A stretch of 64,000 bases of DNA from Parcubacteria group bacterium LiPW_30 (lineage in GTDB: Bacteria; Patescibacteriota; Minisyncoccia; Phycocordibacterales; VMEP01). The stretch lies in contig VMEP01000001.1 in the NCBI GenBank assembly GCA_007375595.1, positions 255,883 to 319,882 on the forward strand, given 5' to 3'. Positions 9,450 to 32,631 of this stretch are shown in pieces; the stretch's first letter is position 1; the number at the start of each line of letters is the position of its first letter. The position numbers and the translations under genes were made by a program. Under the pieces are notes generated by a model that saw only the letters and a list, made by a program, of their open reading frames with translations, was not told where the DNA came from and ran no database searches.

Positions 9450-9472
9450 AATATTTTTACCTAAAAACAAAA

Positions 9473-15924: not shown

Positions 15925-18675
15925 ATGGTTTTAAACTTTAACGGAGAAAGTCATGAAAAATTTGTAAATCCCGAAGAGGAGATTAATTTTTTGCGTGAAC
16001 GTCTTGCAGAAAAGGAAAAAGAAGCCTCGTTTGGTAAAGAATCGGCGCCAGTTAATCATGAAAAAGAGGTTATTAGGGAATATTCGGAAAAGCCAGCTCG
16101 GGAAATTTTGCATCACGAAAAGGTGCTGGGGGAACAAGAGGTAGAGCGTATCGTTCTTGATTTGAAGCCAGAAGAGCACGATAAACAAATGGAGGAGCTT
16201 CTAGGACTTCTTATTGAAAAAGGTGCTCGTAACACTATTTCAGTTGTGGAGAAGATGGATAATCCCCACATAACTGACGACTTTCACAGAATACTTGTTC
16301 AATATGTTAAAAGCGTAGGAAAAGTTCCAGACTTAGAAAAAGATAAACAAGTTTGGAAGGCGGTACATATGCGTCTTTATGAAATCCTTCTTCCAGAAGG
16401 AGACGCAGAAAAGCAGGCAAAAAGCTTTAAAGAAATTGTTACGATAATGGAACAGTTTTACGCTGGGATGCTTTCTGTTTCCGATGGTCGAGATAATTTT
16501 CCAGGGAAGAATTATTTTACGCTTGAGATAGCTTTGTCTAATCAAAGCAGTGAAATAGTTTTTTACGCTTCTGTTCCTGATGATAAGAGTGGTTTGTTGG
16601 AAAAACAGTTACTCGGTTTATATAAAGACGCTCGAATTAGGGAGGTAAAGGATGATTATAATATTTTTAACGAAAAGGGAGCATCTTTGGGCGCCTACGG
16701 AGCTTTCACAAAAAGTCAGGTCTATCCAATAAAAACATATGCAGATTTTGAACATGATCCACTTCCGGTAATTCTTAACGTTTTTTCTAAACTTAAAAAT
16801 AAAGGAGAGGGGGCGGCAATTCAATTTTCAGTTTCTCCTGTTGGTGATTATTTCTTGAAAAGATACGGAAGAGTGCTTGACGATTTAAAACGAGGAGTGC
16901 CAAAAGATGAAGCAACAAATATTTCGCCAACTGTCGGACAAGAGGTGGGGAGGTTTGCCAAGGAACTCATTATGGGTGTTTCTGTGCCTAAAAAAATTGA
17001 TGGGAAAGAGGTTATTGATGAAGACGCGGTAAAATATGTTTCGGAAAAAATTAGTAGCACTATTGTTAATACAAACATTCGAGTAATTGCTTCCGCAGAG
17101 ACAACCTTGCGCGCTGAAGAAATTTTAGGTGAACTACAATCGGCTTTTAATCAATTCACAGATACTAAAGGAAATGGTGTTGAGTTTAAGTCGTTAAAAC
17201 GCCACGACCTGTTGAAGCTTTTTCAAGAATTTTCTTATAGGCTATTTTCTCAAGATCATTCTTTGCCGCTCAACCTAAAAGAACTTACCACAATGTTCCA
17301 TTTTCCAGAGCAGGTTTCGTCGGCGCCACAACTAAAACAAGCCCGTTCCACGACAGCGCCTGCACCGCTTGATGCTCCAACCTACGGGACACTTCTTGGA
17401 ATAAATAAACACCGTGGAGAAAATAAGGAAATTTTTATTACCGACGAAGATCGAATGCGTCACTTTTATGTTGTCGGACAAACAGGCACTGGTAAGACCG
17501 CAATCATGAAGAACATGATTATTCAGAATATTAAAGCTGGGCACGGGGTGTGCATGATAGACCCACACGGAACCGATATTGAGGATATTTTAGGAAATAT
17601 TCCACCTGAGAGAGAAAAAGACGTTATTTATTTTGACCCAGCTTACACAGAAAGAGTGATGGGTTTGAACATGCTGGAGTATGACCAAACTCGACCAGAG
17701 CGGAAAACTTTCGTGGTTAACGAGTTGATTTCGATTTTTAATAAATTATTTGATATGAAAGTTGCTGGCGGACCAGCATTTGAACAGTACTTCAGAAACT
17801 CTGCTCTTTTGGTTATGGAACACCCAGAATCTGGCAGCACTCTTCTTGAAATTGTGCGTGTTTTGGCTGACAAATCTTTTCGTGACATGAAATTGTCTTA
17901 TTGTAAGAATCCAGTGATTACGCAGTTTTGGCAAAACGCGATTAAGACAAGCGGGGAGCAGTCGCTCGCCAACTTTGTCCCTTATATCTCAAGCAAATTT
18001 GATCCATTTTTATCAAACGATATTATGCGTCCAGTTATTGCTCAAGAAAAATCATCATTTAATTTTAGGCAAATAATGGATGAGAAAAAAATACTCTTGG
18101 TTAATTTGTCTAAAGGGAGGTTGGGAGATTTAAACGCCAATTTAATAGGGCTTATCTTGGTTGGCAAGATTCTTATTGCCGCGCTTTCTCGTGTTGATAT
18201 TGTTGGCGGAAAACCTGCTGATTTTTATTTATACATTGATGAGTTCCAAAATATAACCACTGACTCAATTTCCACAATCCTTTCAGAAGCGCGAAAATAC
18301 AGATTATCTCTAAATGTTGCCCATCAATTTATTAAACAACTTGATGAAAAAACAAAGAACGCTATTTTCGGCAACGTTGGTTCAATGGCGGTGTTTCGTG
18401 TTGGTAGTGAGGATGCAGAATTTTTAGAGAAACAACTTGCGCCAGTTTTTTCTGCAAGAGATATTATGAATTTGGACAATTATAACGCTTACGTGAAAAT
18501 GCTTATGAATGGTCAACCAGCCAGAGCTTTTAACATTGAAACGATTTCGCCAAGGAAGGGGGACGTAAATACCGCTACAAGAATTAAAGAGGCGTCTTAC
18601 CAAAAATACGGAACCCCCCGTGTAGAAATTGAGGAGCATATCGCTCAAAAGTATCGCCAAACAGGAACAGTTTAG
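15925..18675 (+). CDS. Large soluble P-loop ATPase: C-terminal VirD4/TraD/TrwB-like (type IV coupling protein family) domain with an uncharacterised ~480-aa N-terminal region
   Basis: Walker A GQTGTGKT, Walker B LYIDEF, downstream RKYR...NVAHQFIKQL resembling the T4CP R..QS..QL motif; no TM segments. Confidence 0.5.
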   Translation: MVLNFNGESHEKFVNPEEEINFLRERLAEKEKEASFGKESAPVNHEKEVIREYSEKPAREILHHEKVLGEQEVERIVLDLKPEEHDKQMEELLGLLIEKGARNTISVVEKMDNPHITDDFHRILVQYVKSVGKVPDLEKDKQVWKAVHMRLYEILLPEGDAEKQAKSFKEIVTIMEQFYAGMLSVSDGRDNFPGKNYFTLEIALSNQSSEIVFYASVPDDKSGLLEKQLLGLYKDARIREVKDDYNIFNEKGASLGAYGAFTKSQVYPIKTYADFEHDPLPVILNVFSKLKNKGEGAAIQFSVSPVGDYFLKRYGRVLDDLKRGVPKDEATNISPTVGQEVGRFAKELIMGVSVPKKIDGKEVIDEDAVKYVSEKISSTIVNTNIRVIASAETTLRAEEILGELQSAFNQFTDTKGNGVEFKSLKRHDLLKLFQEFSYRLFSQDHSLPLNLKELTTMFHFPEQVSSAPQLKQARSTTAPAPLDAPTYGTLLGINKHRGENKEIFITDEDRMRHFYVVGQTGTGKTAIMKNMIIQNIKAGHGVCMIDPHGTDIEDILGNIPPEREKDVIYFDPAYTERVMGLNMLEYDQTRPERKTFVVNELISIFNKLFDMKVAGGPAFEQYFRNSALLVMEHPESGSTLLEIVRVLADKSFRDMKLSYCKNPVITQFWQNAIKTSGEQSLANFVPYISSKFDPFLSNDIMRPVIAQEKSSFNFRQIMDEKKILLVNLSKGRLGDLNANLIGLILVGKILIAALSRVDIVGGKPADFYLYIDEFQNITTDSISTILSEARKYRLSLNVAHQFIKQLDEKTKNAIFGNVGSMAVFRVGSEDAEFLEKQLAPVFSARDIMNLDNYNAYVKMLMNGQPARAFNIETISPRKGDVNTATRIKEASYQKYGTPRVEIEEHIAQKYRQTGTV

Positions 18676-18779
18676 TCTATACGTTTTAATTTAATTATAG
18701 GTGGTAGGGATTTTTTTGTCAGGTTAGTTTCCGTACGGTAAATTACTTTTTAGAGCACAGTCTTTAATTAATAGTTAGT

Positions 18780-18829
18780 TTCCATACCTCCAATCCATGT
18801 GCTATAGCACATGGATTGGAGGTATGGAA
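18780..18829. repeat. Perfect 50-bp palindrome centred on GCTATAGC
   Basis: ttccatacctccaatccatgt GCTATAGC acatggattggaggtatggaa. Confidence 0.8.
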
Positions 18830-18940
18830 TTGTCTTGAGAATTTTAGGAGGTTGCAGTATGTAGGCGTTCTTTGTTAGGATAAGCCCTACATCACACTAA
18901 AAGGTGATAGGGCTAGACCGGGTGTCCCACGGACGCCATA

Positions 18941-19033
18941 GGGCGAACAGTCTGGGTACAGACTGTTTTAGCCCTAAAACATTATTACCAAAATGTTCGG
19001 GCGAACAAATTTTAAATAAAATTTGTTTTAGCC
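18941..19033 (+). repeat. Two tandem copies of the TTCGGGCGA-hairpin-TTTTAGCC motif
   Basis: gggcgaaCAGTCTGggtaCAGACTGttttagcc then ctaaaa..ttcgggcgaaCAAATTTtaaataAAATTTGttttagcc. Confidence 0.6.
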
Positions 19034-19062
19034 ATTAAACAGTTAATTAAATTTCTAAATTT

Positions 19063-19539
19063 ATGGCTCACGAGAAAAAAGAAACTTCGCTTATTATTTT
19101 TAAACCAGATACTCTCCAAAGAGGTTTGCTTGGAGAAATGATTCATCGTTTTGAAAGAAAGGGCTTGAAGATTCGCGGACTCAAAATGATGCAATTAGAA
19201 GATGTGGTTCTTGAAGAGCATTACGCTCATATAAAAGATAAACCATTTTTTGGCGGGATAAAGGAGTATATGAAAGCAACACCAGTCGTTGTTTTTGCGG
19301 TAACAGGAATTAATGCAATCTCGGCAATTCGTACCATTATCGGACCAACAAAAGGACATGAAGCTCCAGCCGGGACAATCCGCGGAGATTTTTCTATGAG
19401 TGGTCAATCAAATATTGTTCATGCGTCAGACTCAAAAGAATCAGCAGAAGCAGAACTAAAGCGTTTCTTTAAAGAAGATGAGTTGTTTGATTATGAACGT
19501 CCTAATTTCCCTTTTATCTACGCAGACGAAGCATTCTAG
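19063..19539 (+). CDS. ndk: Nucleoside diphosphate kinase
   Basis: NDK fold motifs (FKPD..QRGL, active-site His region NIVHASDS). Confidence 0.9.
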   Translation: MAHEKKETSLIIFKPDTLQRGLLGEMIHRFERKGLKIRGLKMMQLEDVVLEEHYAHIKDKPFFGGIKEYMKATPVVVFAVTGINAISAIRTIIGPTKGHEAPAGTIRGDFSMSGQSNIVHASDSKESAEAELKRFFKEDELFDYERPNFPFIYADEAF

Positions 19540-22124: not shown

Positions 22125-22139
22125 AAAACGAAGCTAAAA

Positions 22140-22172
22140 CAAAAAAACCACCATTTGGTGGTTTTTTTGTTT
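22140..22172. terminator. Bidirectional terminator between convergent genes
   Basis: aaaaaaaccaccatttggtggtttttttg. Confidence 0.7.
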
Positions 22173-22179
22173 TAGGTAT

Positions 22180-23329: not shown

Positions 23330-23700
23330 GTTTTTTAATGTTCGCCCTTAAAATGCGCGTATAATTTTTTGCTAAAAATTTACTATACTCGCCTCGCCAG
23401 GCTCCGTAATGCATTTTAAGGGCGAACATAGAGATATTAAATACAAAAAACTTTGCTGAATTTTCGCTCTGCTCGATTCGTCAATCTGCGCAAGGTATTT
23501 TAGGGGTGTATGCAGGAAATAAAATACTTAGAAATGCACGTATAATTTTCTGCTGAAAATTTACTATACTCGGCTCGTCAGCCTCCGTCTCTCAATTGCT
23601 TCACTTATCGCAATTGAGCATCGCACTGCGCCCGCCTGCGCGTACACGCGGGCAGGCAATGTTTTTAAATACAAAAAATTGGATTTTTGAAGAAGGAGGA
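23330..23700 (-). mobile_element. Cluster of two partial MITE-family copies, minus orientation
   Basis: 23341-23430 bounded by ttcgcccttaaaatgc / gcattttaagggcgaa inverted repeats; 23536-23690 is the reverse complement of modules seen at 54961-55105 (ctcaattgcgataagtgaagcaattgagagacggaggctgacgagccgag). Confidence 0.55.
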
Positions 23701-23715
23701 AGGTTTATTTTTACA

Positions 23716-23748
23716 AAAAAAAGAACAGGACCCGGAGGTCCTGTTTGT
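23716..23748 (-). terminator. Terminator for minus-strand gene 23757..24827
   Basis: acaggacccggaggtcctgt followed by a T-run on the minus strand. Confidence 0.6.
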
Positions 23749-23756
23749 CGCCAGTG

Positions 23757-24827
23757 TTACTTATCGGCGGGCGTGGTGGCTAGCCTCTTCAGGTTTTGTT
23801 CGGCTTCTTCCGTTTGCCGTTCTGCTTCCCGAATTGCCGCGAGGCGGGCGTATTCAGCCTTCCTTATTTCATACAGCTTAAGGAATTCCGCCGCCTTTGA
23901 GTTTACGAGACAGGCTTCTTCGACGGTAGTCGCTAGGCGAGTTTTACCGACAGGGGATTTGGTTGTGCGGAGTTCTGTTCGCAGAGAGATTTCTTTGAGC
24001 TTTGCCAAACATGGTTCATCAAGCTCTTCGAAACCCCAGAAACTGCTTCGCATACCATAAATATCCCACAGCAGGTCAATCTTGCCGATGGAGGACAGCA
24101 CTTCAAGCATCCAGAGTTTTGCCGAGTTGATGTTTTTGCGCATCTCGGCATTTTGCTTTGCTTTCTCTTCTGGACGGATATGCCACGACTTGATTTCTTC
24201 TCCCTTCCACTTGAAAACAAACGCTGCGAGTCGCAGTAGGAAATTGATGGCCTGTTGTTCGTTGTGGTTGGAGGCCTCTAGTCCAGATAGGTTGCGAACA
24301 GCCCCCCCTTCGACCGCGAAAAAGTTCATGAGGATTGGAAGGATTCGCCCTGAAACAAAGTCAGTGCCCCATGGGTCTCTGCTCCTGTGTTGCACGGAGA
24401 GGGAGTTCTCAATCTCGACCTTGAAGAAGTTCTGGGCGAGTACGTCAAACGCTTTGCGTGCCAACTTCTGGCGAAACCATGCTGGGTTTCCTGGTTGGCG
24501 ATTTCCGTACCTGTCGTAGCCGATGACATATCCTTTGCCTTCATCTGACTCAAGATGCCACTGGGAATAACCACGTTCCCAACCATCAGCAATGGCGAAG
24601 TAGGTTTCCAGGCGATCAGCATGGTCGTACTCTTGTTCGCCATGACTGAAACGCTCAAACCCCACATTGAAACCCTCGTGGAGCAGTCCGGCCAGCTGGT
24701 GCGTGGTGGTGGACTCTTGCCAGCAGGTTCGCCACTCGTTCCAATTACGGGGCGGGCGAATTTCGCGCACCATGAGGGGGTGTGGTAGAGCACTTACGGC
24801 ACTTACGAGATCTTCAATTTGCGACAT
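23757..24827 (-). CDS. Hypothetical 357-aa protein, GC-rich (~52%), coiled-coil C-terminus
   Basis: Start moved to internal Met (MSQIEDL) because the longer ORF overlaps tRNA-Ala; RBS AGAGAGG upstream. Confidence 0.5.
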   Translation of the reverse strand: MSQIEDLVSAVSALPHPLMVREIRPPRNWNEWRTCWQESTTTHQLAGLLHEGFNVGFERFSHGEQEYDHADRLETYFAIADGWERGYSQWHLESDEGKGYVIGYDRYGNRQPGNPAWFRQKLARKAFDVLAQNFFKVEIENSLSVQHRSRDPWGTDFVSGRILPILMNFFAVEGGAVRNLSGLEASNHNEQQAINFLLRLAAFVFKWKGEEIKSWHIRPEEKAKQNAEMRKNINSAKLWMLEVLSSIGKIDLLWDIYGMRSSFWGFEELDEPCLAKLKEISLRTELRTTKSPVGKTRLATTVEEACLVNSKAAEFLKLYEIRKAEYARLAAIREAERQTEEAEQNLKRLATTPADK

Positions 24828-24929
24828 TTTGTTGCCTCTCTTTCTTTCTTGGGTTATGCCCCGTACTGTGACGGGACGAGGTACTGCTATGCCAAATATA
24901 CCTCGGGGCTTGATTAAGTCAAACTGTTG

Positions 24930-25005
24930 TGGTGGACCATACCGGATTCGAACCGGTCGCCTCATCCATGCCATGGATGCGCTCTACCAAATGAGCTAAT
25001 GGCCC
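24930..25005 (-). tRNA. tRNA-Ala (anticodon GGC), CCA encoded
   Basis: Cloverleaf folded by hand: acceptor GGGCCAT/ATGGTCC, D-arm GCTC..GAGC, anticodon loop ATGGCAT, T-loop TTCGAAT. Confidence 0.8.
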
Positions 25006-25064
25006 CTAAAATATTTTACAGAAAAATATTCGGGCGACCATTTTCTTTAGAAAATGGTTTAGCC
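25006..25064 (+). promoter_or_regulatory. CTAAAA-hairpin-TTCGGGCGA-hairpin-TTTTAGCC motif, antisense orientation abutting the tRNA-Ala 5' end
   Basis: Read on minus strand the motif ends TTTTAG immediately before mature tRNA G1. Confidence 0.5.
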
Positions 25065-25097
25065 TTTAAATTTTGAAACACTATACCAAAACAAACA

Positions 25098-25135
25098 AAA
25101 ACAGCCCGACGAAAGTCGGGGCTGTTTTTGTTTCT
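25098..25135. terminator. Bidirectional terminator
   Basis: aaaaacagccccgactttcgtcgggctgtttttgtttg-type hairpin flanked by A-run and T-run. Confidence 0.6.
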
Positions 25136-25145
25136 ATTAATTAAA

Positions 25146-25305
25146 ACTATTTCTTTGAAGGAAGGATTTTGTACATTCCAGTTCCACACACTGTACATGT
25201 ACCTTTTGCTGCAGGGCGTCCAGGCTTTATTTCAGTCTGCTGAACATCCTTCATCTCACGCTTTTCCTTACACTTCACACAATACCCAATTATTTTTTCA
25301 TCCAT
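25146..25305 (-). pseudogene. Small double-CxxC zinc-ribbon protein gene (52 aa expected) disrupted by a single extra G (frameshift)
   Basis: Minus-strand translation MDEKIIGYCVKCKEKA* then +1 frame ...REMKDVQQTEIKPGRPAAKGTCTVCGTGMYKILPSKK*; intact reading is restored by deleting one g in aaggaaaagGcgtgag. Confidence 0.35.
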
Positions 25306-25451
25306 AGTTATATAGTCTAGCCTATTTTAGGGTAAATACACAAGGAGGAAGGGGAATATACCCGTTTGACCTTTCTGTGATTATCATGTAGTAGTTAGTG
25401 TTAGTAATTGTTGAATTTTCAATCAACGGGATAGAAAAGGAAAAAACGATC

Positions 25452-26861
25452 ATGCACATTTCAACTCGCGGTTTGGCTCCGGCGGTTAATTTTGCCTACA
25501 CGGTGCTCAAGGGAATTGCGCCAGATGGTGGTTTATACGTTCCGGAGAAGATTTTCCAGTTTGCCGAAGATGACATTCGTCGGCTTGCTGGACTTTCCTA
25601 TACGGAGGTTGCCAAAATTGTCATGGATCGGTTTGCTCCGGACATGGACAAAGTCGCGCTTCACGGCGCGATAGACAAGGCTTATACCCCCGACGTTTTT
25701 GCAAACGTTACCGAAAAGGATGACAATCCCATCGACATCGTCCCTGTGCGCCATCTTGGTCAAGATTTGTATCTTGCTCGGCTGAGCAATGGGCCAACTC
25801 TCGCATTCAAGGATTTGGCGTTGCAGTTGCTTGGCCACCTCTTCGAAATCGTTCTCGACGGGAAACCACTCAACGTGCTTGGGGCGACGTCGGGCGACAC
25901 GGGGTCGGCGGCTATTCATGCCATGCTCGGAAGAAAGGATATACGCGTTTTCATGCTCTCTCCGCATGGCAGGATGAGTCAATTTCAATCGGCTCAGATT
26001 TTGGGCGTCAATGACCCGATGATTCACAACATTTCGGTCAACGGTTCGTTCGACGATTGCCAAGACGTGGTGAAGGCGGTTAGCGGGGACGCTAGCTTCA
26101 GGGAGGAGTACAACATCGGCGCCGTAAACTCAATCAATTGGGCAAGGGTTGCCGCGCAGGTGGTCTACTACTTCTTTGTTTGCTCCCGCATCCGTGGTCG
26201 TGATGGTGGCCAAATTGACGTCGCCGTCCCGACAGGGAATTACGGCAACATCTATGCGGCCTGGGTTGCGAAAATGATGGGGTTGCCGATTCGTCGGCTG
26301 ATTCTCGCAACCAACGAAAACGATGTTCTGCATGAGTTTTTCACAACGGGCATTTACAGGCCCAGACTGAAGACCATCGAAACGTCGAGTCCGTCGATGG
26401 ACATCACCAAGGCGTCGAATTTCGAGCGTTACGTTTTTGACGTTTTTGGCGGCAACTCAACCAAGGTTGCAAGGCTGTGGGCGGCACTCGACAAGACGGG
26501 GCAGTTTGATTTGTCGCACAGGATGGCGAAGATTCGCGAGACAGGTATTACTTCCTGCGCAGTTCAGCAGGAACAAGTCGCCGAGACCATCAACTACGCC
26601 TTCGTGAAGTACGGCATCGTCATCGACCCCCACACGGCGGTAGCAATGCACTCGGCAATTAATACGCAGCAGTCCGGCGTGCCGATGGTCGTGATGGAGA
26701 CAGCTCAGCCCTGCAAGTTTGACCTTGCTATAAAGCAGGCGCTTGGTTTCACTGTATCGCCTCCTTCGAGCATGAAGGACCTTATGTCCACAAAGCAGTT
26801 CTTTACGCAGATGGATCCAAACGTCGAAGCGACCAAGGAATTCATTCGCGCGCGGGCATGA
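25452..26861 (+). CDS. thrC: Threonine synthase
   Basis: PLP-enzyme motifs GPTLAFKD and ATSGDTGSAA; GC ~55-60%, well above background. Confidence 0.85.
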   Translation: MHISTRGLAPAVNFAYTVLKGIAPDGGLYVPEKIFQFAEDDIRRLAGLSYTEVAKIVMDRFAPDMDKVALHGAIDKAYTPDVFANVTEKDDNPIDIVPVRHLGQDLYLARLSNGPTLAFKDLALQLLGHLFEIVLDGKPLNVLGATSGDTGSAAIHAMLGRKDIRVFMLSPHGRMSQFQSAQILGVNDPMIHNISVNGSFDDCQDVVKAVSGDASFREEYNIGAVNSINWARVAAQVVYYFFVCSRIRGRDGGQIDVAVPTGNYGNIYAAWVAKMMGLPIRRLILATNENDVLHEFFTTGIYRPRLKTIETSSPSMDITKASNFERYVFDVFGGNSTKVARLWAALDKTGQFDLSHRMAKIRETGITSCAVQQEQVAETINYAFVKYGIVIDPHTAVAMHSAINTQQSGVPMVVMETAQPCKFDLAIKQALGFTVSPPSSMKDLMSTKQFFTQMDPNVEATKEFIRARA

Positions 26862-26883
26862 GCGAATTCATTTTCGCTTTTCA

Positions 26884-26985
26884 AAACCTAGTCTTCGGGC
26901 TAGGTTTTTTGTTTGGTGAGGCGTTGATTTCATAACTAAAATTTTTGAATTAATAAAACCCGCCGGAGCGGGTTTTTTGTGACTT
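26884..26985. terminator. Two successive intrinsic terminator hairpins
   Basis: aaaacctagtcttcgggctaggttttttg and aaaacccgccggagcgggttttttg. Confidence 0.65.
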
Positions 26986-26989
26986 CTTT

Positions 26990-27493
26990 TTACCATGGCG
27001 TTTTATTTCCAGGATATTCTGCGATTGCAAACTCGAGGCCATCTATCCCGTAATCAGCGAGACGGACACACCCACCCATGAAGCAAAACTGCTTGGCTTG
27101 GAGAATGTCGAGAGCCACGGTTGTTTCCATGCCCTGGAAAAGATTCCAGAGGTAGTGGGATTTCACCCTTTCGTCCACAACAGGTTCACCTCGTCGCTGG
27201 ATGTTTACAAGCCAGAAGATAGTGAAGACGGTCGGGGCGAGGAGGTCGCTCTTGTACTTCTTGTAGAGGCGGTATTCGGTACGGTTTGCGACGATACCGG
27301 CCAGAAGATACTTGATTACGGCAAGGAGCGGGTTCCGGTGATGTTTCTCAAGGTTACCCCGTACTTGTTTCTTCTGAATTGATTCGAAGAGCTTGATGAA
27401 CGGCCTTAGTGGGCGAAATCGCGCAATCTTGATGGCGTACTGCCCAATCAAAATTACACAGCGGGTAGAACCACACGCGAAATCAAGGTACAT
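26990..27493 (-). CDS. Hypothetical 167-aa protein, possibly small kinase-like fold
   Basis: AIKIAR (beta-3 Lys-like) and VRLADYG (DFG-like) motifs; GC-rich; weak inference. Confidence 0.3.
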   Translation of the reverse strand: MYLDFACGSTRCVILIGQYAIKIARFRPLRPFIKLFESIQKKQVRGNLEKHHRNPLLAVIKYLLAGIVANRTEYRLYKKYKSDLLAPTVFTIFWLVNIQRRGEPVVDERVKSHYLWNLFQGMETTVALDILQAKQFCFMGGCVRLADYGIDGLEFAIAEYPGNKTPW

Positions 27494-27621
27494 GATGCCT
27501 CCCGTTCCTGTTGGTTGAAGAGACTACCTATGTTTACTCGCTACACTTCATCATCTTTGGGGCTGGAAGTCAAGGATAAAAAACAAACCCATGGAAACCT
27601 GTGCTTGTGTTTTTGTGGGGT

Positions 27622-27683
27622 GGCTAAAACATCTCTACAAAAGAGATGTTCGCCCGAATATTTTGTAATTGCAAAATATTTTA
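27622..27683 (-). promoter_or_regulatory. Fifth copy of the TTCGGGCGA hairpin motif, sense orientation ahead of gene 27705
   Basis: ggctaaaaCATCTCTacaaaAGAGATGttcgcccgaa tattttgtaattgcaaaatat tttag | gagggg. Confidence 0.5.
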
Positions 27684-27704
27684 GGAGGGGTAGGATTGGG
27701 GGAC

Positions 27705-28049
27705 ATGGAGAAGGTAATACTAAGTGTGTTTGTTGGGGTACTTTTGGTTCCACAAATTGCTTTTGCTCACCCTGGTAGGACAGACTCTTCTGGTTGTCAC
27801 ACGTGTAAAACAAATTGTTCCAATTGGGGTCTTTCGTATGGAGAATATCATTGTCATAATTCAAAAGGAGTTTCTCAGCCAAAGGAACCAATAAAAAGTA
27901 CGTATGGTGAAAATGGAACAGGTTACGTTTCTAAAGCTCCTGAATATAAGACACAGAAAGTTAATACGGTGAAAAGTGTAAATACACAACAAAACAAAAA
28001 AGTAGAAGAAAAAGGAAATTGGTTTAGTAGATTATTAGGGTGGAGGTAA
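27705..28049 (+). CDS. Secreted small protein with His/Cys metal-binding-like motif (HPGRTDSSGCH...GEYHCH) and C-terminal WFSRLLGW tail
   Basis: Signal peptide MEKVILSVFVGVLLVPQIAFA; RBS AGGAGGGG; start set at ATG (track ORF begins at an upstream TTG). Confidence 0.5.
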   Translation: MEKVILSVFVGVLLVPQIAFAHPGRTDSSGCHTCKTNCSNWGLSYGEYHCHNSKGVSQPKEPIKSTYGENGTGYVSKAPEYKTQKVNTVKSVNTQQNKKVEEKGNWFSRLLGWR

Positions 28050-31452: not shown

Positions 31453-31849
31453 GTGGAGATGGGGGGAATTGAACCCCCGTGCAGATGATTTTCAGGCGCG
31501 GGTCTACGAAGCTTAGTTTGTTTTTTTGTTTTCAGCACGAAAGGTTTAAAGCAAACAAAATCCTTTCACACTTATCCTCTATGTTTTTTAGTTAGTATCC
31601 CCGAGAAGTGAAATACGCTTAGTCCGGAAATATAACGCCCGTTCACATCTACCAGACTGCAATGTGACGAACGACCTTAGCTTATTTTATTAAGCGAAAG
31701 CGACGGCGAAGCTGTTTGCCTTAAAATAAGGAGAAACAGATAAGCCCTGTGCAGTTTTGTTTGCACTTATGTTTTGTGACGGTTTAACAAGTCATCACAG
31801 CTTGGCTTGCGCGCGCGAGAATGGTCAGCTGTCTAAGCAAATCATCCCC
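31453..31849 (-). ncRNA. ssrA: tmRNA (ssrA)
   Basis: Minus-strand 5' GGGGATG pairs with 3' CATCTCC; T-arm GGGGGTTCAATTCCCCC; candidate tag reading frame GCA AAC AGC TTC GCC GTC GCT TTC GCT TAA TAA; smpB adjacent. Confidence 0.75.
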
Positions 31850-31910
31850 CTAAAACATTTTTGTTGCAAAAATGTTCGGGCGACCATTTTCTTTAGAAAA
31901 TGGTTTAGCC
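31850..31910 (+). promoter_or_regulatory. CTAAAA-hairpin-TTCGGGCGA-hairpin-TTTTAGCC motif abutting the tmRNA 5' end (antisense as written)
   Basis: 45-nt core identical to the copy at 25019-25064. Confidence 0.5.
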
Positions 31911-31913
31911 AAT

Positions 31914-32183
31914 TTAATGGCACACCCTATTTTGTTTATATTTCTTTAAAATCTTTTGTTTGAATCTAGCCGACCACAGACTTTTTAGGAATCTCTCTCT
32001 GTTGAACGCTTCACTTTTATCATCTAATTTTTCAGAATAAATGATTTCAAACGGTCGGCGTTTTACAGTCGCGATAACCTTGCCTTGATTGTGGTCTTTG
32101 ATTCTGCGTTCAAGATTTTCTGTACATCCTACATACAGTTTCTCGTCTTTTAAACTGAGTAGAATATAAACAAAATAGGGCAT
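31914..32183 (-). CDS. GIY-YIG domain nuclease (UPF0213/YhbQ-like)
   Basis: YFVYILLS..KLYVGCT..L.RRI.DHN motif set. Confidence 0.75.
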   Translation of the reverse strand: MPYFVYILLSLKDEKLYVGCTENLERRIKDHNQGKVIATVKRRPFEIIYSEKLDDKSEAFNRERFLKSLWSARFKQKILKKYKQNRVCH

Positions 32184-32184
32184 A

Positions 32185-32631
32185 CTACATGTTTTTCAAT
32201 GATCTCCTTACTTCACGCATGTCGTCTCGTTTTTTTATTGTCTCGCGTTTATCAAATTTCTTTTTACCGCGAGCAACTCCGAGCGACACCTTGACCTTAC
32301 CTTTTTTATTATACATCGAAAGTGGCACTATTGTCAACTTCTTTTCTTGCTCCATTTGGGCAAGTTCAATGATTTCTTTCTTGGTTAGAAGGAGTTTTCT
32401 GGTGCGGAGAGGATCATAACCTTTTGGCATATTTCCGGCTTGATATGGCGGGATATTTGAACCAAGTAAAAAAACTTCGCCACCACGGACGACAGCATAA
32501 GCCCCCTCAAGGGAACCCATACCTCCTTTAATAGACTTAACCTCAGGACCTAAAAGCTCAATACCAGCTTCTAGTGTTTCCGTAATTTCGTAATTAAATC
32601 TAGCTTTTTTGTTTTCTATGAAAGAAGACAT
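32185..32631 (-). CDS. smpB: SsrA-binding protein SmpB
   Basis: SmpB family sequence; adjacent to tmRNA. Confidence 0.9.
   Translation of the reverse strand: MSSFIENKKARFNYEITETLEAGIELLGPEVKSIKGGMGSLEGAYAVVRGGEVFLLGSNIPPYQAGNMPKGYDPLRTRKLLLTKKEIIELAQMEQEKKLTIVPLSMYNKKGKVKVSLGVARGKKKFDKRETIKKRDDMREVRRSLKNM

Follow-up and report, generated by a model that had tools for sequence, protein, structure and literature searches.

In a 64,000-nucleotide stretch of the genome of Parcubacteria group bacterium LiPW_30 (hereafter the window), several copies of a short non-coding element are found in which two hairpins are held between conserved linkers. The element has the consensus X-CTAA-(hairpin 1)-CG-X'-CG-(hairpin 2)-TTAG-X, where X is a dinucleotide, normally GG, flanking the element on both sides (X1 and X3) and X' is the dinucleotide at its centre; it measures 55-70 bp and its ends read CTAAAAC...GTTTTAG. 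The element is real, strongly supported and phylum-spanning, and the family is apparently previously undescribed, since literature searches returned nothing describing the motif or such repeats in the Candidate Phyla Radiation (CPR). On balance, we favour the view that the copies belong to a Patescibacteria-wide family of strand-symmetric, double-hairpin mobile DNA elements with a guide of 2 nucleotides (nt).

The original prediction had placed five copies of the motif in the window, and all of them are found there, four as full elements and one as an aberrant unit. A covariance model trained on five unrelated copies from other genomes recovers the four full copies at 55-80 bits (E 2e-12 to 3e-19) and gives the aberrant unit 24 bits, and searching the 64-kb window with this model yielded no other convincing match beyond the five units; two weak matches, at 9469 and 34525, were rejected, being a terminator hairpin and coding sequence. 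Read in the GGCTAAA orientation, the window copies follow GG-CTAA-(hairpin 1)-CG-CC-CG-(hairpin 2)-TTAG-GG. Copy A (27622-27686, plus strand; 61 bits, E 3e-14) is composed of X1 GG (27622-27623), CTAA (27624-27627), hairpin 1 (27628-27650), the CG-CC-CG centre (27651-27656), hairpin 2 (27657-27680), TTAG (27681-27684) and an X3 that is here GA (27685-27686); on its 3' side GAGGGG, a putative Shine-Dalgarno sequence, precedes an ATG at 27705, 20 nt after TTTTAG. Copy B (25004-25064, minus strand; 67.5 bits) starts with X1 GG at 25064-25063 and has its TTTTAG end at 25006, while its X3 GG (25005-25004) forms nucleotides 1-2 of tRNA-Ala(ggc) (24930-25005, minus strand), whose mature 5' end adjoins the element. 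Copy C (31848-31910, minus strand; 79.8 bits) adjoins in the same manner the 5' end of the transfer-messenger RNA (tmRNA) gene ssrA (31453-31849, minus strand; Rfam RF00023, 130 bits), with its TTTTAG end at 31850 and an X3 GG (31849-31848) that forms nucleotides 1-2 of the tmRNA. ARAGORN and Rfam place the two 5' ends at 25005 and 31849, in both cases the first base after TTTTAG, in agreement with the prediction that the element abuts these genes. Copy D (18972-19033, minus strand; 54.8 bits) has its X3 (18973-18972) in common with the next unit, the tandem junction being TTTTAG-GG-CTAAAA. This third unit is the aberrant one (18895-18973, minus strand; 23.8 bits, E 4e-4); its first half, GGCTAA-hairpin-CGCC (18941-18973), is normal, and a 29-nt CTAT..CTAG segment (18912-18940) replaces the second hairpin.

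Every window copy folds as two hairpins, with z-scores of -2.9 to -6.1, and TCGCCCGAA has 4 exact occurrences in the window, all within elements, where about 0.5 would be expected for such a 9-mer in 128 kb. Rfam gave no match to the elements at gathering thresholds over the entire window, and none at E <= 10 over 18500-19200, hence a known RNA family or self-cleaving ribozyme was rejected. Neither is an orientation tied to replication evident in the window, because the GC skew is positive over its whole length and the copies face both ways.

Concerning the distribution of the family, pattern scans returned at least about 230 further copies, nearly all from Patescibacteria. The genome scan, performed with an exact pattern on one genome per species, yielded at least 118 loci, beside 64 metagenome loci, and among the matches listed there are Saccharibacteria, Nomura-, Kaiser-, Taylor-, Yonath-, Vogel- and Zambryskibacteria, Paceibacterota and Minisyncoccia. 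The matches in Muribacter (L064), Blastocatellia (L016) and Defluviitaleaceae (L028) lack the hairpins and were discarded as chance (L-numbers denote fetched loci, which total 1.27 Mb of DNA; L091 and L050 come from a relative with 94-97% identity). No element was present in the viral contigs scanned, and a phage origin was rejected on this ground. The element is thus spread across Patescibacteria and is not, as had been proposed, lineage-specific; the wider search also found that the further copies keep both the stem covariation and the bias towards RNA 5' ends that had been noticed in the window.

The covariation of the stems holds far beyond the five window copies. Among ~130 distinct elements, each stem position, counted from the base, shows at least 4 Watson-Crick pair types and is paired in 91-100% of cases, as compared with 50-58% when the stem halves are swapped between elements. 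In a gapless, loop-trimmed alignment of 98 distinct elements (A5), hairpin 1 is 98.9% and hairpin 2 98.1% paired, and the covariation score is 0.79 versus 0.145 in shuffled alignments; none of 500 shuffles reaches 0.79, and the score collapses when the partners are slid by one column. The element is in fact an inverted pair of one unit, X-C-TAA-(stem)-C-G-X', hence both DNA strands give the same consensus and the only asymmetric parts are the dinucleotides X and X'. The orientation assigned in the original prediction is therefore one that only the GG/CC dinucleotides define, the element itself being strand-symmetric.

The kind of pairs that build the stems is also informative. For 120 distinct GG-type elements, read in the sense direction of the downstream RNA, the 2195 stem pairs comprise 2156 Watson-Crick, 15 G:T, 15 A:C and 9 other, while in 59 tRNAs of these loci the acceptor and T stems (678 pairs) comprise 621 Watson-Crick, 47 G:U, 6 A:C and 4 other. 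G:T is no commoner than A:C, unlike in the tRNA stems, hence the element stems are kept as true palindromes on both strands. Such a pattern is the one expected for recognition of folded single-stranded DNA or a cruciform, or for palindrome-correcting copying, and not for selection on one RNA strand. Orthologous copies within RNase P RNA genes have stems that differ and yet stay perfect, and this divergence without G:U intermediates could result from turnover by re-insertion or from palindrome-templated correction. Of the earlier proposal that the covariation reflects a selected secondary structure, the pairing stands, but the covariation lacks the signature typical of RNA.

A second constraint concerns three dinucleotides: X1 and X3 are identical, and the centre X' is their reverse complement. 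In the first scan, which was GG-centred and left X3 free, 110 of 118 hairpin-validated elements among the matches listed are GG/CC/GG or its reverse complement, with X1 equal to X3 likewise in 110 of the 118, and the exceptions include CA/TG/CA, AC/GT/AC, AG/CT/AG and GA/TC/GA. In the second scan, of metagenomes, X1 and X3 were free and the centre was forced to start with A or T (non-CC); the full rule is obeyed by 37/63 hairpin-validated elements, the chance rate being 1/256, and a further 19/63 have identical flanks with a single mismatch to the centre, mostly GG/TC/GG, so that X1 equals X3 in 56/63. The rule is thus also kept where X is GA, CA, GT or AG. In the A5 alignment, pairing amounts to 95.9% both for X1:X' and for X':X3, involving 4-5 pair types. 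The rule has been maintained repeatedly and does not descend from one inherited event, given that non-GG types obeying it are present at no fewer than 15 distinct loci.

Regarding the position of the copies, the 5' leaders of tRNA-Ala and tmRNA must contain the element, and its association with the 5' ends of stable RNAs is both real and general: in 33 of the 172 tRNA and tmRNA genes called by ARAGORN in the loci, the mature 5' end has an element end at distance 0 or -1, versus a single gene with the element at its 3' end, and hardly any copies lie at in-between distances. Many more tmRNAs and intron-containing tRNAs, both missed by ARAGORN, also directly follow TTTTAG. Where X is GA or CC, the first G of the tRNA is the last G of TTTTAG and X3 is tRNA nt 2-3, as in tRNA-Ser of L147, L149 and L161 and tRNA-Arg of L150; judged by coordinates, tRNA-Thr of L013 overlaps its element in the same way. 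About 12 copies, copy A included, end 10-20 nt before a start codon, X3 and the next bases forming GGAGG or GAGGGG. On the other side, the stop codon of co-directional upstream open reading frames (ORFs) is often the TAA of GGCTAA, and the 6 nt upstream of X1 contain 41-56% T and are TTTTAG-like. In L121, L135, L165 and L166, GA-type elements are followed by a conserved, unannotated GAAGTAAAATATAGATGCGTGAGACAGGTTGGTCTCC, a candidate 5' end of another stable RNA.

Other copies lie within structured RNA genes. In RNase P RNA genes they occur in sense direction and at places that differ between lineages, L088 having a copy at P3 and L014 copies in the S-domain and the P15-17 region; a conserved TG-type copy stands beside ...CCAUGGCAACAUGGG|UG in L004 and in at least 12 metagenome loci, and in L004 a 23-nt GUAA-tetraloop hairpin separates two element copies. 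The element is also found within a hairpin loop of tmRNA. Hairpin 2 of L088 is aligned as P3 by cmscan, but a mimicry of RNase P P1-P3 was rejected and the copy is treated as an insertion, because a better P1/P2 pairing exists upstream and other RNase P genes carry copies elsewhere. In many CPR genomes, one or two elements are contained in the genes for RNase P RNA and tmRNA (L014, L088, L004, L090; L075, L059, L184). In the Rfam alignments, hairpins of the element are taken for native helices (P3, P16/17), and a large fraction of the tmRNAs escaped ARAGORN; insertions of the element could explain some of the missed or distorted tmRNA and RNase P calls.

Empty and filled sites can be compared in two loci. 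In one tmRNA family, the empty sites of L042, L084 and L111 read ...TATAAG(A/T)TGAGGCATAATATT, and the filled site of L075 reads ...TATAAGTAG-AG-(CTAAAAC...GTTTTAG)-AG-GCATAATATT, a simple 58-nt difference; L059 carries an element in the same tmRNA loop, the flanks of the two being AG..AG or GG..GG. At the tRNA-Ala locus, the flank ...TTTGGTATAGTGTTTCATAAATTTAAA in L091 is directly followed by the tRNA start GGGCTCATAG with no element between, where the window has ...TTTAAA-GG-(CTAAACC...TTTTAG)-GG-GCCATTAG. In both loci the empty site carries a single X. Upstream of the element, 15 nt from copy B, a promoter-like extended -10 box, TGGTATAGT (25080-25088, minus strand, from reading the sequence), is present in both tRNA-Ala alleles, which argues against the element being the promoter.

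Tandem arrays also occur, in which adjoining copies share the TTTTAG-X-CTAAAA junction, and in a Saccharibacteria metagenome-assembled genome (CAYZZT) a few hairpin modules are recombined over at least 11 copies, with hairpin loops in both orientations, GAGTAC and GTACTC. Nine single-hairpin CTAAAAC..GTTTTAG units in the 1.27 Mb were considered as family members and rejected, all of them being ordinary full palindromic terminators, in which X3 is the reverse complement of X1. The window contains an ordinary bidirectional terminator with element-like ends between convergent ORFs, CTAAAAC-(A7)-stem-loop-stem-(T7)-GTTTTAG at 22134-22175. In the L091 orthologue of copy A, a 31-nt nested insert sits at the centre, with CC repeats on its flanks. 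It represents a smaller, second type of insert, of ~29 nt, with CTAG/CTAT...CTAG ends, a short GC hairpin and a CC repeat, nested exactly at the centre dinucleotide (L091 2819-2914 versus window 27650-27656) and absent from the window copy; a similar 29-mer is the one at 18912-18940 in the aberrant unit at 18.9 kb.

Taken together, the existence of both empty and filled sites, the 2-nt repeats on the flanks, the tandem arrays and the copies within RNA genes speak for an inserted mobile element rather than for a dedicated processing signal of stable RNAs. In the mechanism we favour, the element would be mobile or duplicative at the DNA level, folding as single-stranded DNA, and the centre dinucleotide would pair with the flanking one, positioning the cutting and joining by a structure-specific enzyme. 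This logic would be that of the ends of IS200/IS605 insertion sequences, whose cleavage sites are set by pairing with guide sequences. The preferred target would be an A/T-rich run followed by GG, and the sites tolerated in AT-rich, gene-dense genomes would mostly be the leader/+1 junctions of stable RNAs starting with G, Shine-Dalgarno regions and apical RNA loops. A gene would survive such an insertion because the X repeat and the terminal G of the element regenerate the RNA 5' end. Once inserted, the element would be transcribed with its host, and before a tRNA or tmRNA would form a structured 5' leader removed by RNase P; copies inside RNase P RNA or tmRNA would be tolerated because the self-contained three-way junction brings its ends together.

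The only ORF repeatedly flanked by elements in the fetched loci encodes a GIY-YIG protein of 85-93 amino acids (aa). In the window it is an 89-aa UPF0213-type ORF (31914-32183, minus strand; Pfam PF01541) located 3 nt upstream of copy C and preceded by smpB (32185-32631, minus strand; assigned from the window translation and the Pfam SmpB match of orthologous genes). Homologues with 52-71% identity lie directly upstream of element and tmRNA in 24/27 loci, the gene order smpB - GIY-YIG - element - ssrA hardly varies among CPR lineages (L183-L188 and ~25 others), and it was found in all 6 loci sampled protein-first from other CPR assemblies. Elements stand on both sides of the ORF in five loci (L098, L168 and L142, GA type; L112 and L030, GG type), and the tmRNA of L056, which has no element, has no GIY-YIG gene either. 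A second GIY-YIG paralogue is located just downstream of tmRNA in L111, L030, L093 and L075, or upstream of smpB in L185. The closest solved relatives of the window protein, 1YWL and 1ZG2, are UPF0213 proteins deposited as hypothetical proteins; we know of no function for this family despite its solved structures, and the literature searches found nothing relevant on it, nor any link between GIY-YIG proteins and tmRNA. GIY-YIG nucleases such as I-TevI and Eco29kI cut with a 2-nt stagger. It is a speculative idea that the small UPF0213 nuclease beside the ssrA copy is the mobilising enzyme, in which case a 2-nt stagger would match the 2-nt X.

Several points weigh against a mobile element. No transposase or recombinase is tied to it in the 1.27 Mb of loci; a weak tblastn search of these with an approximate IS608 TnpA query gave one IS200-like match, 1.5 kb from an element, and an association with IS200/IS605 TnpA was rejected, the sole match to this approximate query not being adjacent to the element. 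This match (L163, 2518-2913) is near a GA/TC/GG element that has the same sequence as the one in L120. A 2-nt guide alone cannot explain the near-exclusive 0/-1 position at RNA 5' ends, for which we infer a preference for A/T-rich|GG targets together with purifying selection. The tRNA-Ala comparison is no clean 59-nt indel, the sequence downstream of the junction being replaced as well, and the loci were gathered by pattern, which biases the element frequencies. The GIY-YIG link is one of synteny, and the protein could instead serve trans-translation, as rnr adjoins smpB in other bacteria. Finally, the ssrA-proximal copy has been kept in deep lineages. Such conservation, unusual in a selfish repeat, suggests a function for at least that copy; a possible co-opted role for this near-universal copy is, for example, to stabilise the smpB-GIY-YIG mRNA at the 3' end that RNase P cleavage would leave.

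The alternative that survives best, though we consider it unlikely, is a cis-acting RNA leader or processing signal, in which a three-way junction with X' paired to the first 2 nucleotides of the RNA would mark the cleavage of 5' ends for tRNA, tmRNA and some mRNAs, and would free tmRNA from a smpB-GIY-YIG co-transcript, perhaps by a dedicated nuclease. The exact 0/-1 distance from 33 RNA 5' ends, the 95.9% complementarity of X' and X3 and the presence of the element before tmRNA in all six protein-first loci would follow from such a role, as would the perfect, though different, stems of orthologous RNase P copies; moreover, upstream ORFs that stop at the TAA of GGCTAA leave no space for a separate promoter. 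However, the stems lack the G:U excess seen in RNA helices of the same genomes, the complementarity to X' is equal for X1 and X3, and the element is strand-symmetric. Cutting would also fragment the RNase P RNAs and tmRNAs with internal copies, including the gene of L004 with its tetraloop hairpin between two copies; many tRNAs and the tmRNA of L056 manage without the element, RNase P RNA genes are present in these organisms, and no Rfam family matches the element. Of the former designation as a promoter/leader or processing element, the leader position is retained, the promoter is unlikely, and a dedicated processing signal is a weaker rival.

A bolder version of mobility seems to us rather improbable. 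Here the UPF0213 nuclease would cut the folded hairpin junctions, with a 2-nt stagger set by the pairing of centre and flanks, and would run a new transposition or recombination system of precise excision and re-insertion at matching dinucleotides, preferentially at RNase P cleavage boundaries, throughout the CPR.

Co-option of an inserted element in the manner of repetitive extragenic palindromic (REP) sequences is given a slim chance only; its hairpins would then terminate the upstream mRNA or stabilise its 3' end, and would form an insulating spacer between an ORF and the stable RNA downstream. This would suit the UUUU after hairpin 2 and the many copies that start at the stop codon of a co-directional upstream ORF, since RNase P cleavage would leave the upstream mRNA ending in two stable hairpins, and ordinary terminators of these genomes, CTAAAA-stem-TTTTAG, are similar. 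But the copy at tRNA-Ala follows a terminator and a promoter-like box and not an ORF, the stems are AT-rich and the terminator scan calls no element, and neither the three-way dinucleotide rule nor the copies within RNA genes would be explained.

Equally slim is the chance of a structure-specific recombination site, used in the manner of att or attC to exchange tRNA/tmRNA cassettes or islands, with the 2-nt X as crossover core. Its basis is the tRNA-Ala locus, where the similarity between window and L091 stops exactly at the border of copy B (25063) and resumes 1.7 kb away, the tRNA body and this following stretch being different, so that more than a simple insertion happened there. The two tRNA-Ala(ggc) bodies differ by ~30%, and a segment at ~23337-27650, with a GC content of 0.48 versus 0.32-0.41 around it, harbors a threonine synthase gene (25398-26861) and two ORFs without Pfam match; copies B and A flank the threonine synthase segment in opposite orientation. 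A different tRNA-Ala and a high-GC segment between two copies would fit an exchange, as would the conserved ends with a variable, attC-like folded middle, and TTTTAG-X-CTAAAA and GTTCG-X'-CGAAC are palindromic around a 2-nt asymmetric core, an architecture known from serine-recombinase sites. However, the element has no associated integrase or recombinase gene, its copies are mostly solitary and away from island borders, simple 58-nt empty and filled sites exist, and the case is built on a single synteny breakpoint.

A promoter with its start at the G after TTTTAG, giving leaderless stable RNAs and mRNAs with very short 5' untranslated regions, is highly improbable, given that the conserved blocks vary in spacing by more than 12 nt with no -10/-35 consensus (nor a -10 at fixed distance), that X3 can be TG or CT, that copies lie within RNase P RNA and tmRNA, and that the element-free tRNA-Ala allele of L091 retains both the flank and the -10-like box, even though the downstream sequence almost always begins with GG at a fixed point and some copies occupy all the space between ORF stop and RNA gene. 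In appearance, the element is closer to a small mobile piece of DNA than to a promoter.

In the window, the tandem elements at 18.9 kb border on their left an ORF-free stretch of 265 bp (18676-18940), without homologue in the fetched loci except for the 29-mer; as it has no Rfam match, a known RNA gene was rejected. It contains a perfect 50-bp palindrome (18780-18829; 25-nt arms, no spacer) and a 14-nt direct repeat, GTTAGTTTCC(G/A)TAC, at 18723 and 18774. Just upstream is a 916-aa ORF (15925-18675) with weak matches to HerA/TraG/TrwB-type coupling-protein ATPase domains.

If the proposed reading is true, a large part of the bacterial tree carries an unannotated 60-nt element that borders tRNA and tmRNA genes on their 5' side and also lies within RNase P RNA and tmRNA, and such an element could contribute to annotation failures, i.e. 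tmRNAs missed by ARAGORN and RNase P helices misaligned by Rfam. The three-way dinucleotide rule would point to a guide-based cut-and-join mechanism, which is not known to have been described for miniature elements, and the smpB-GIY-YIG-element-ssrA arrangement would provide a hypothesis on the function of UPF0213 GIY-YIG proteins, the first that can be tested. The tRNA precursors processed in these organisms would have leaders that are long and highly structured, a point of interest for the biology of RNase P in reduced genomes, and the element could offer a handle for Saccharibacteria genetic tools.

Among known systems, a sigma-70 promoter has -35 and -10 hexamers spaced by 16-18 nt, at a fixed distance from the start; the scan calls no promoter-like site in any element, no fixed -10 is found upstream and block spacing is variable. 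An intrinsic terminator has a GC-rich hairpin and then a U tract; the scan for terminators does not call the elements, whose stems are mostly A/T with only four U after hairpin 2. TIGR arrays, whose anatomy was used for comparison (10.64898/2026.09.09.750476), and CRISPR-like arrays differ as well, and a TIGR-Tas or CRISPR-like array was rejected, since the element has self-complementary hairpins as its variable parts and lacks box C/D motifs. Small insertions and intervening sequences of rRNA, tmRNA and RNase P RNA, like the group I introns known from Patescibacteria (PMC13011429), share with the element that they interrupt structured stable-RNA genes of these organisms at peripheral loops; however, with 60 nt the element is much too short for a self-splicing intron, Rfam gives it no match to an intron or ribozyme, and most copies are outside the mature RNA, at its 5' edge.

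Integron attC sites (R''/L''...L'/R'), which stand in arrays at cassette 3' ends next to intI, are, as the element would be, recognised by structure; they have AAC...GTT-type ends, and their folded middle is variable, a sign of a single-stranded DNA substrate. In attC only the bottom strand is used, whereas the strands of the element are equivalent, with a conserved GTTCG-X'-CGAAC centre and 2-nt repeats at both ends, and at the element loci no integrase was seen, copies being solitary or in tandem without ORFs between them, and no cassette arrays. Miniature transposable elements with inverted repeats (MITEs) of the Correia, RUP and BOX-like kinds are closer: they too are shorter than 100 bp, occur in multiple copies per genome, vary in presence and absence, and are co-transcribed, and the element has their 7-bp terminal inverted repeats, CTAAAAC/GTTTTAG, and a fixed 2-bp flanking direct repeat. 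Unlike in MITEs, the centre covaries with the target duplication, the interior consists of two independent variable hairpins, and the element is conserved across phylum-level lineages and found inside RNase P RNA and tmRNA. We know of no parent insertion sequence, and no full-length autonomous element with the same ends and a transposase was seen in the 1.27 Mb of loci.

The ends of IS200/IS605, palindrome-associated transposable elements (PATEs), and REP sequences with their bacterial interspersed mosaic elements (BIMEs) are likewise short non-coding hairpin repeats with one hairpin near each end, at extragenic but transcribed sites; BIMEs also form tandem mosaics of inverted units with alternating linkers. 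REPs, which are imperfect palindromes, conserve the stem and a 5' GTAG, whereas the stems of the element vary freely and its linkers CTAA, CG-X'-CG and TTAG are conserved across the superphylum; a REP-associated RAYT gene (Y1 HUH) is flanked by the repeats, while the element has no associated Y1 transposase in the search by approximate query. The preference for RNA 5' boundaries also sets the family apart from IS200 and REP elements. IS200/IS605 inserts strand-specifically 3' of a fixed tetra- or pentanucleotide without target duplication and uses two 4-nt guides, whereas the element is strand-symmetric, with the same dinucleotide on both sides and a single central 2-nt guide-like dinucleotide complementary to both flanks. 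In IS200/IS605, cleavage and target sites are set by short internal guide pairing, and the complementarity of the centre to both flanks may be the counterpart here, with cutting and joining that would follow a similar chemistry. The element is most likely a small palindromic mobile element of the MITE/REP/IS200 kind with an unusual, guide-like centre.

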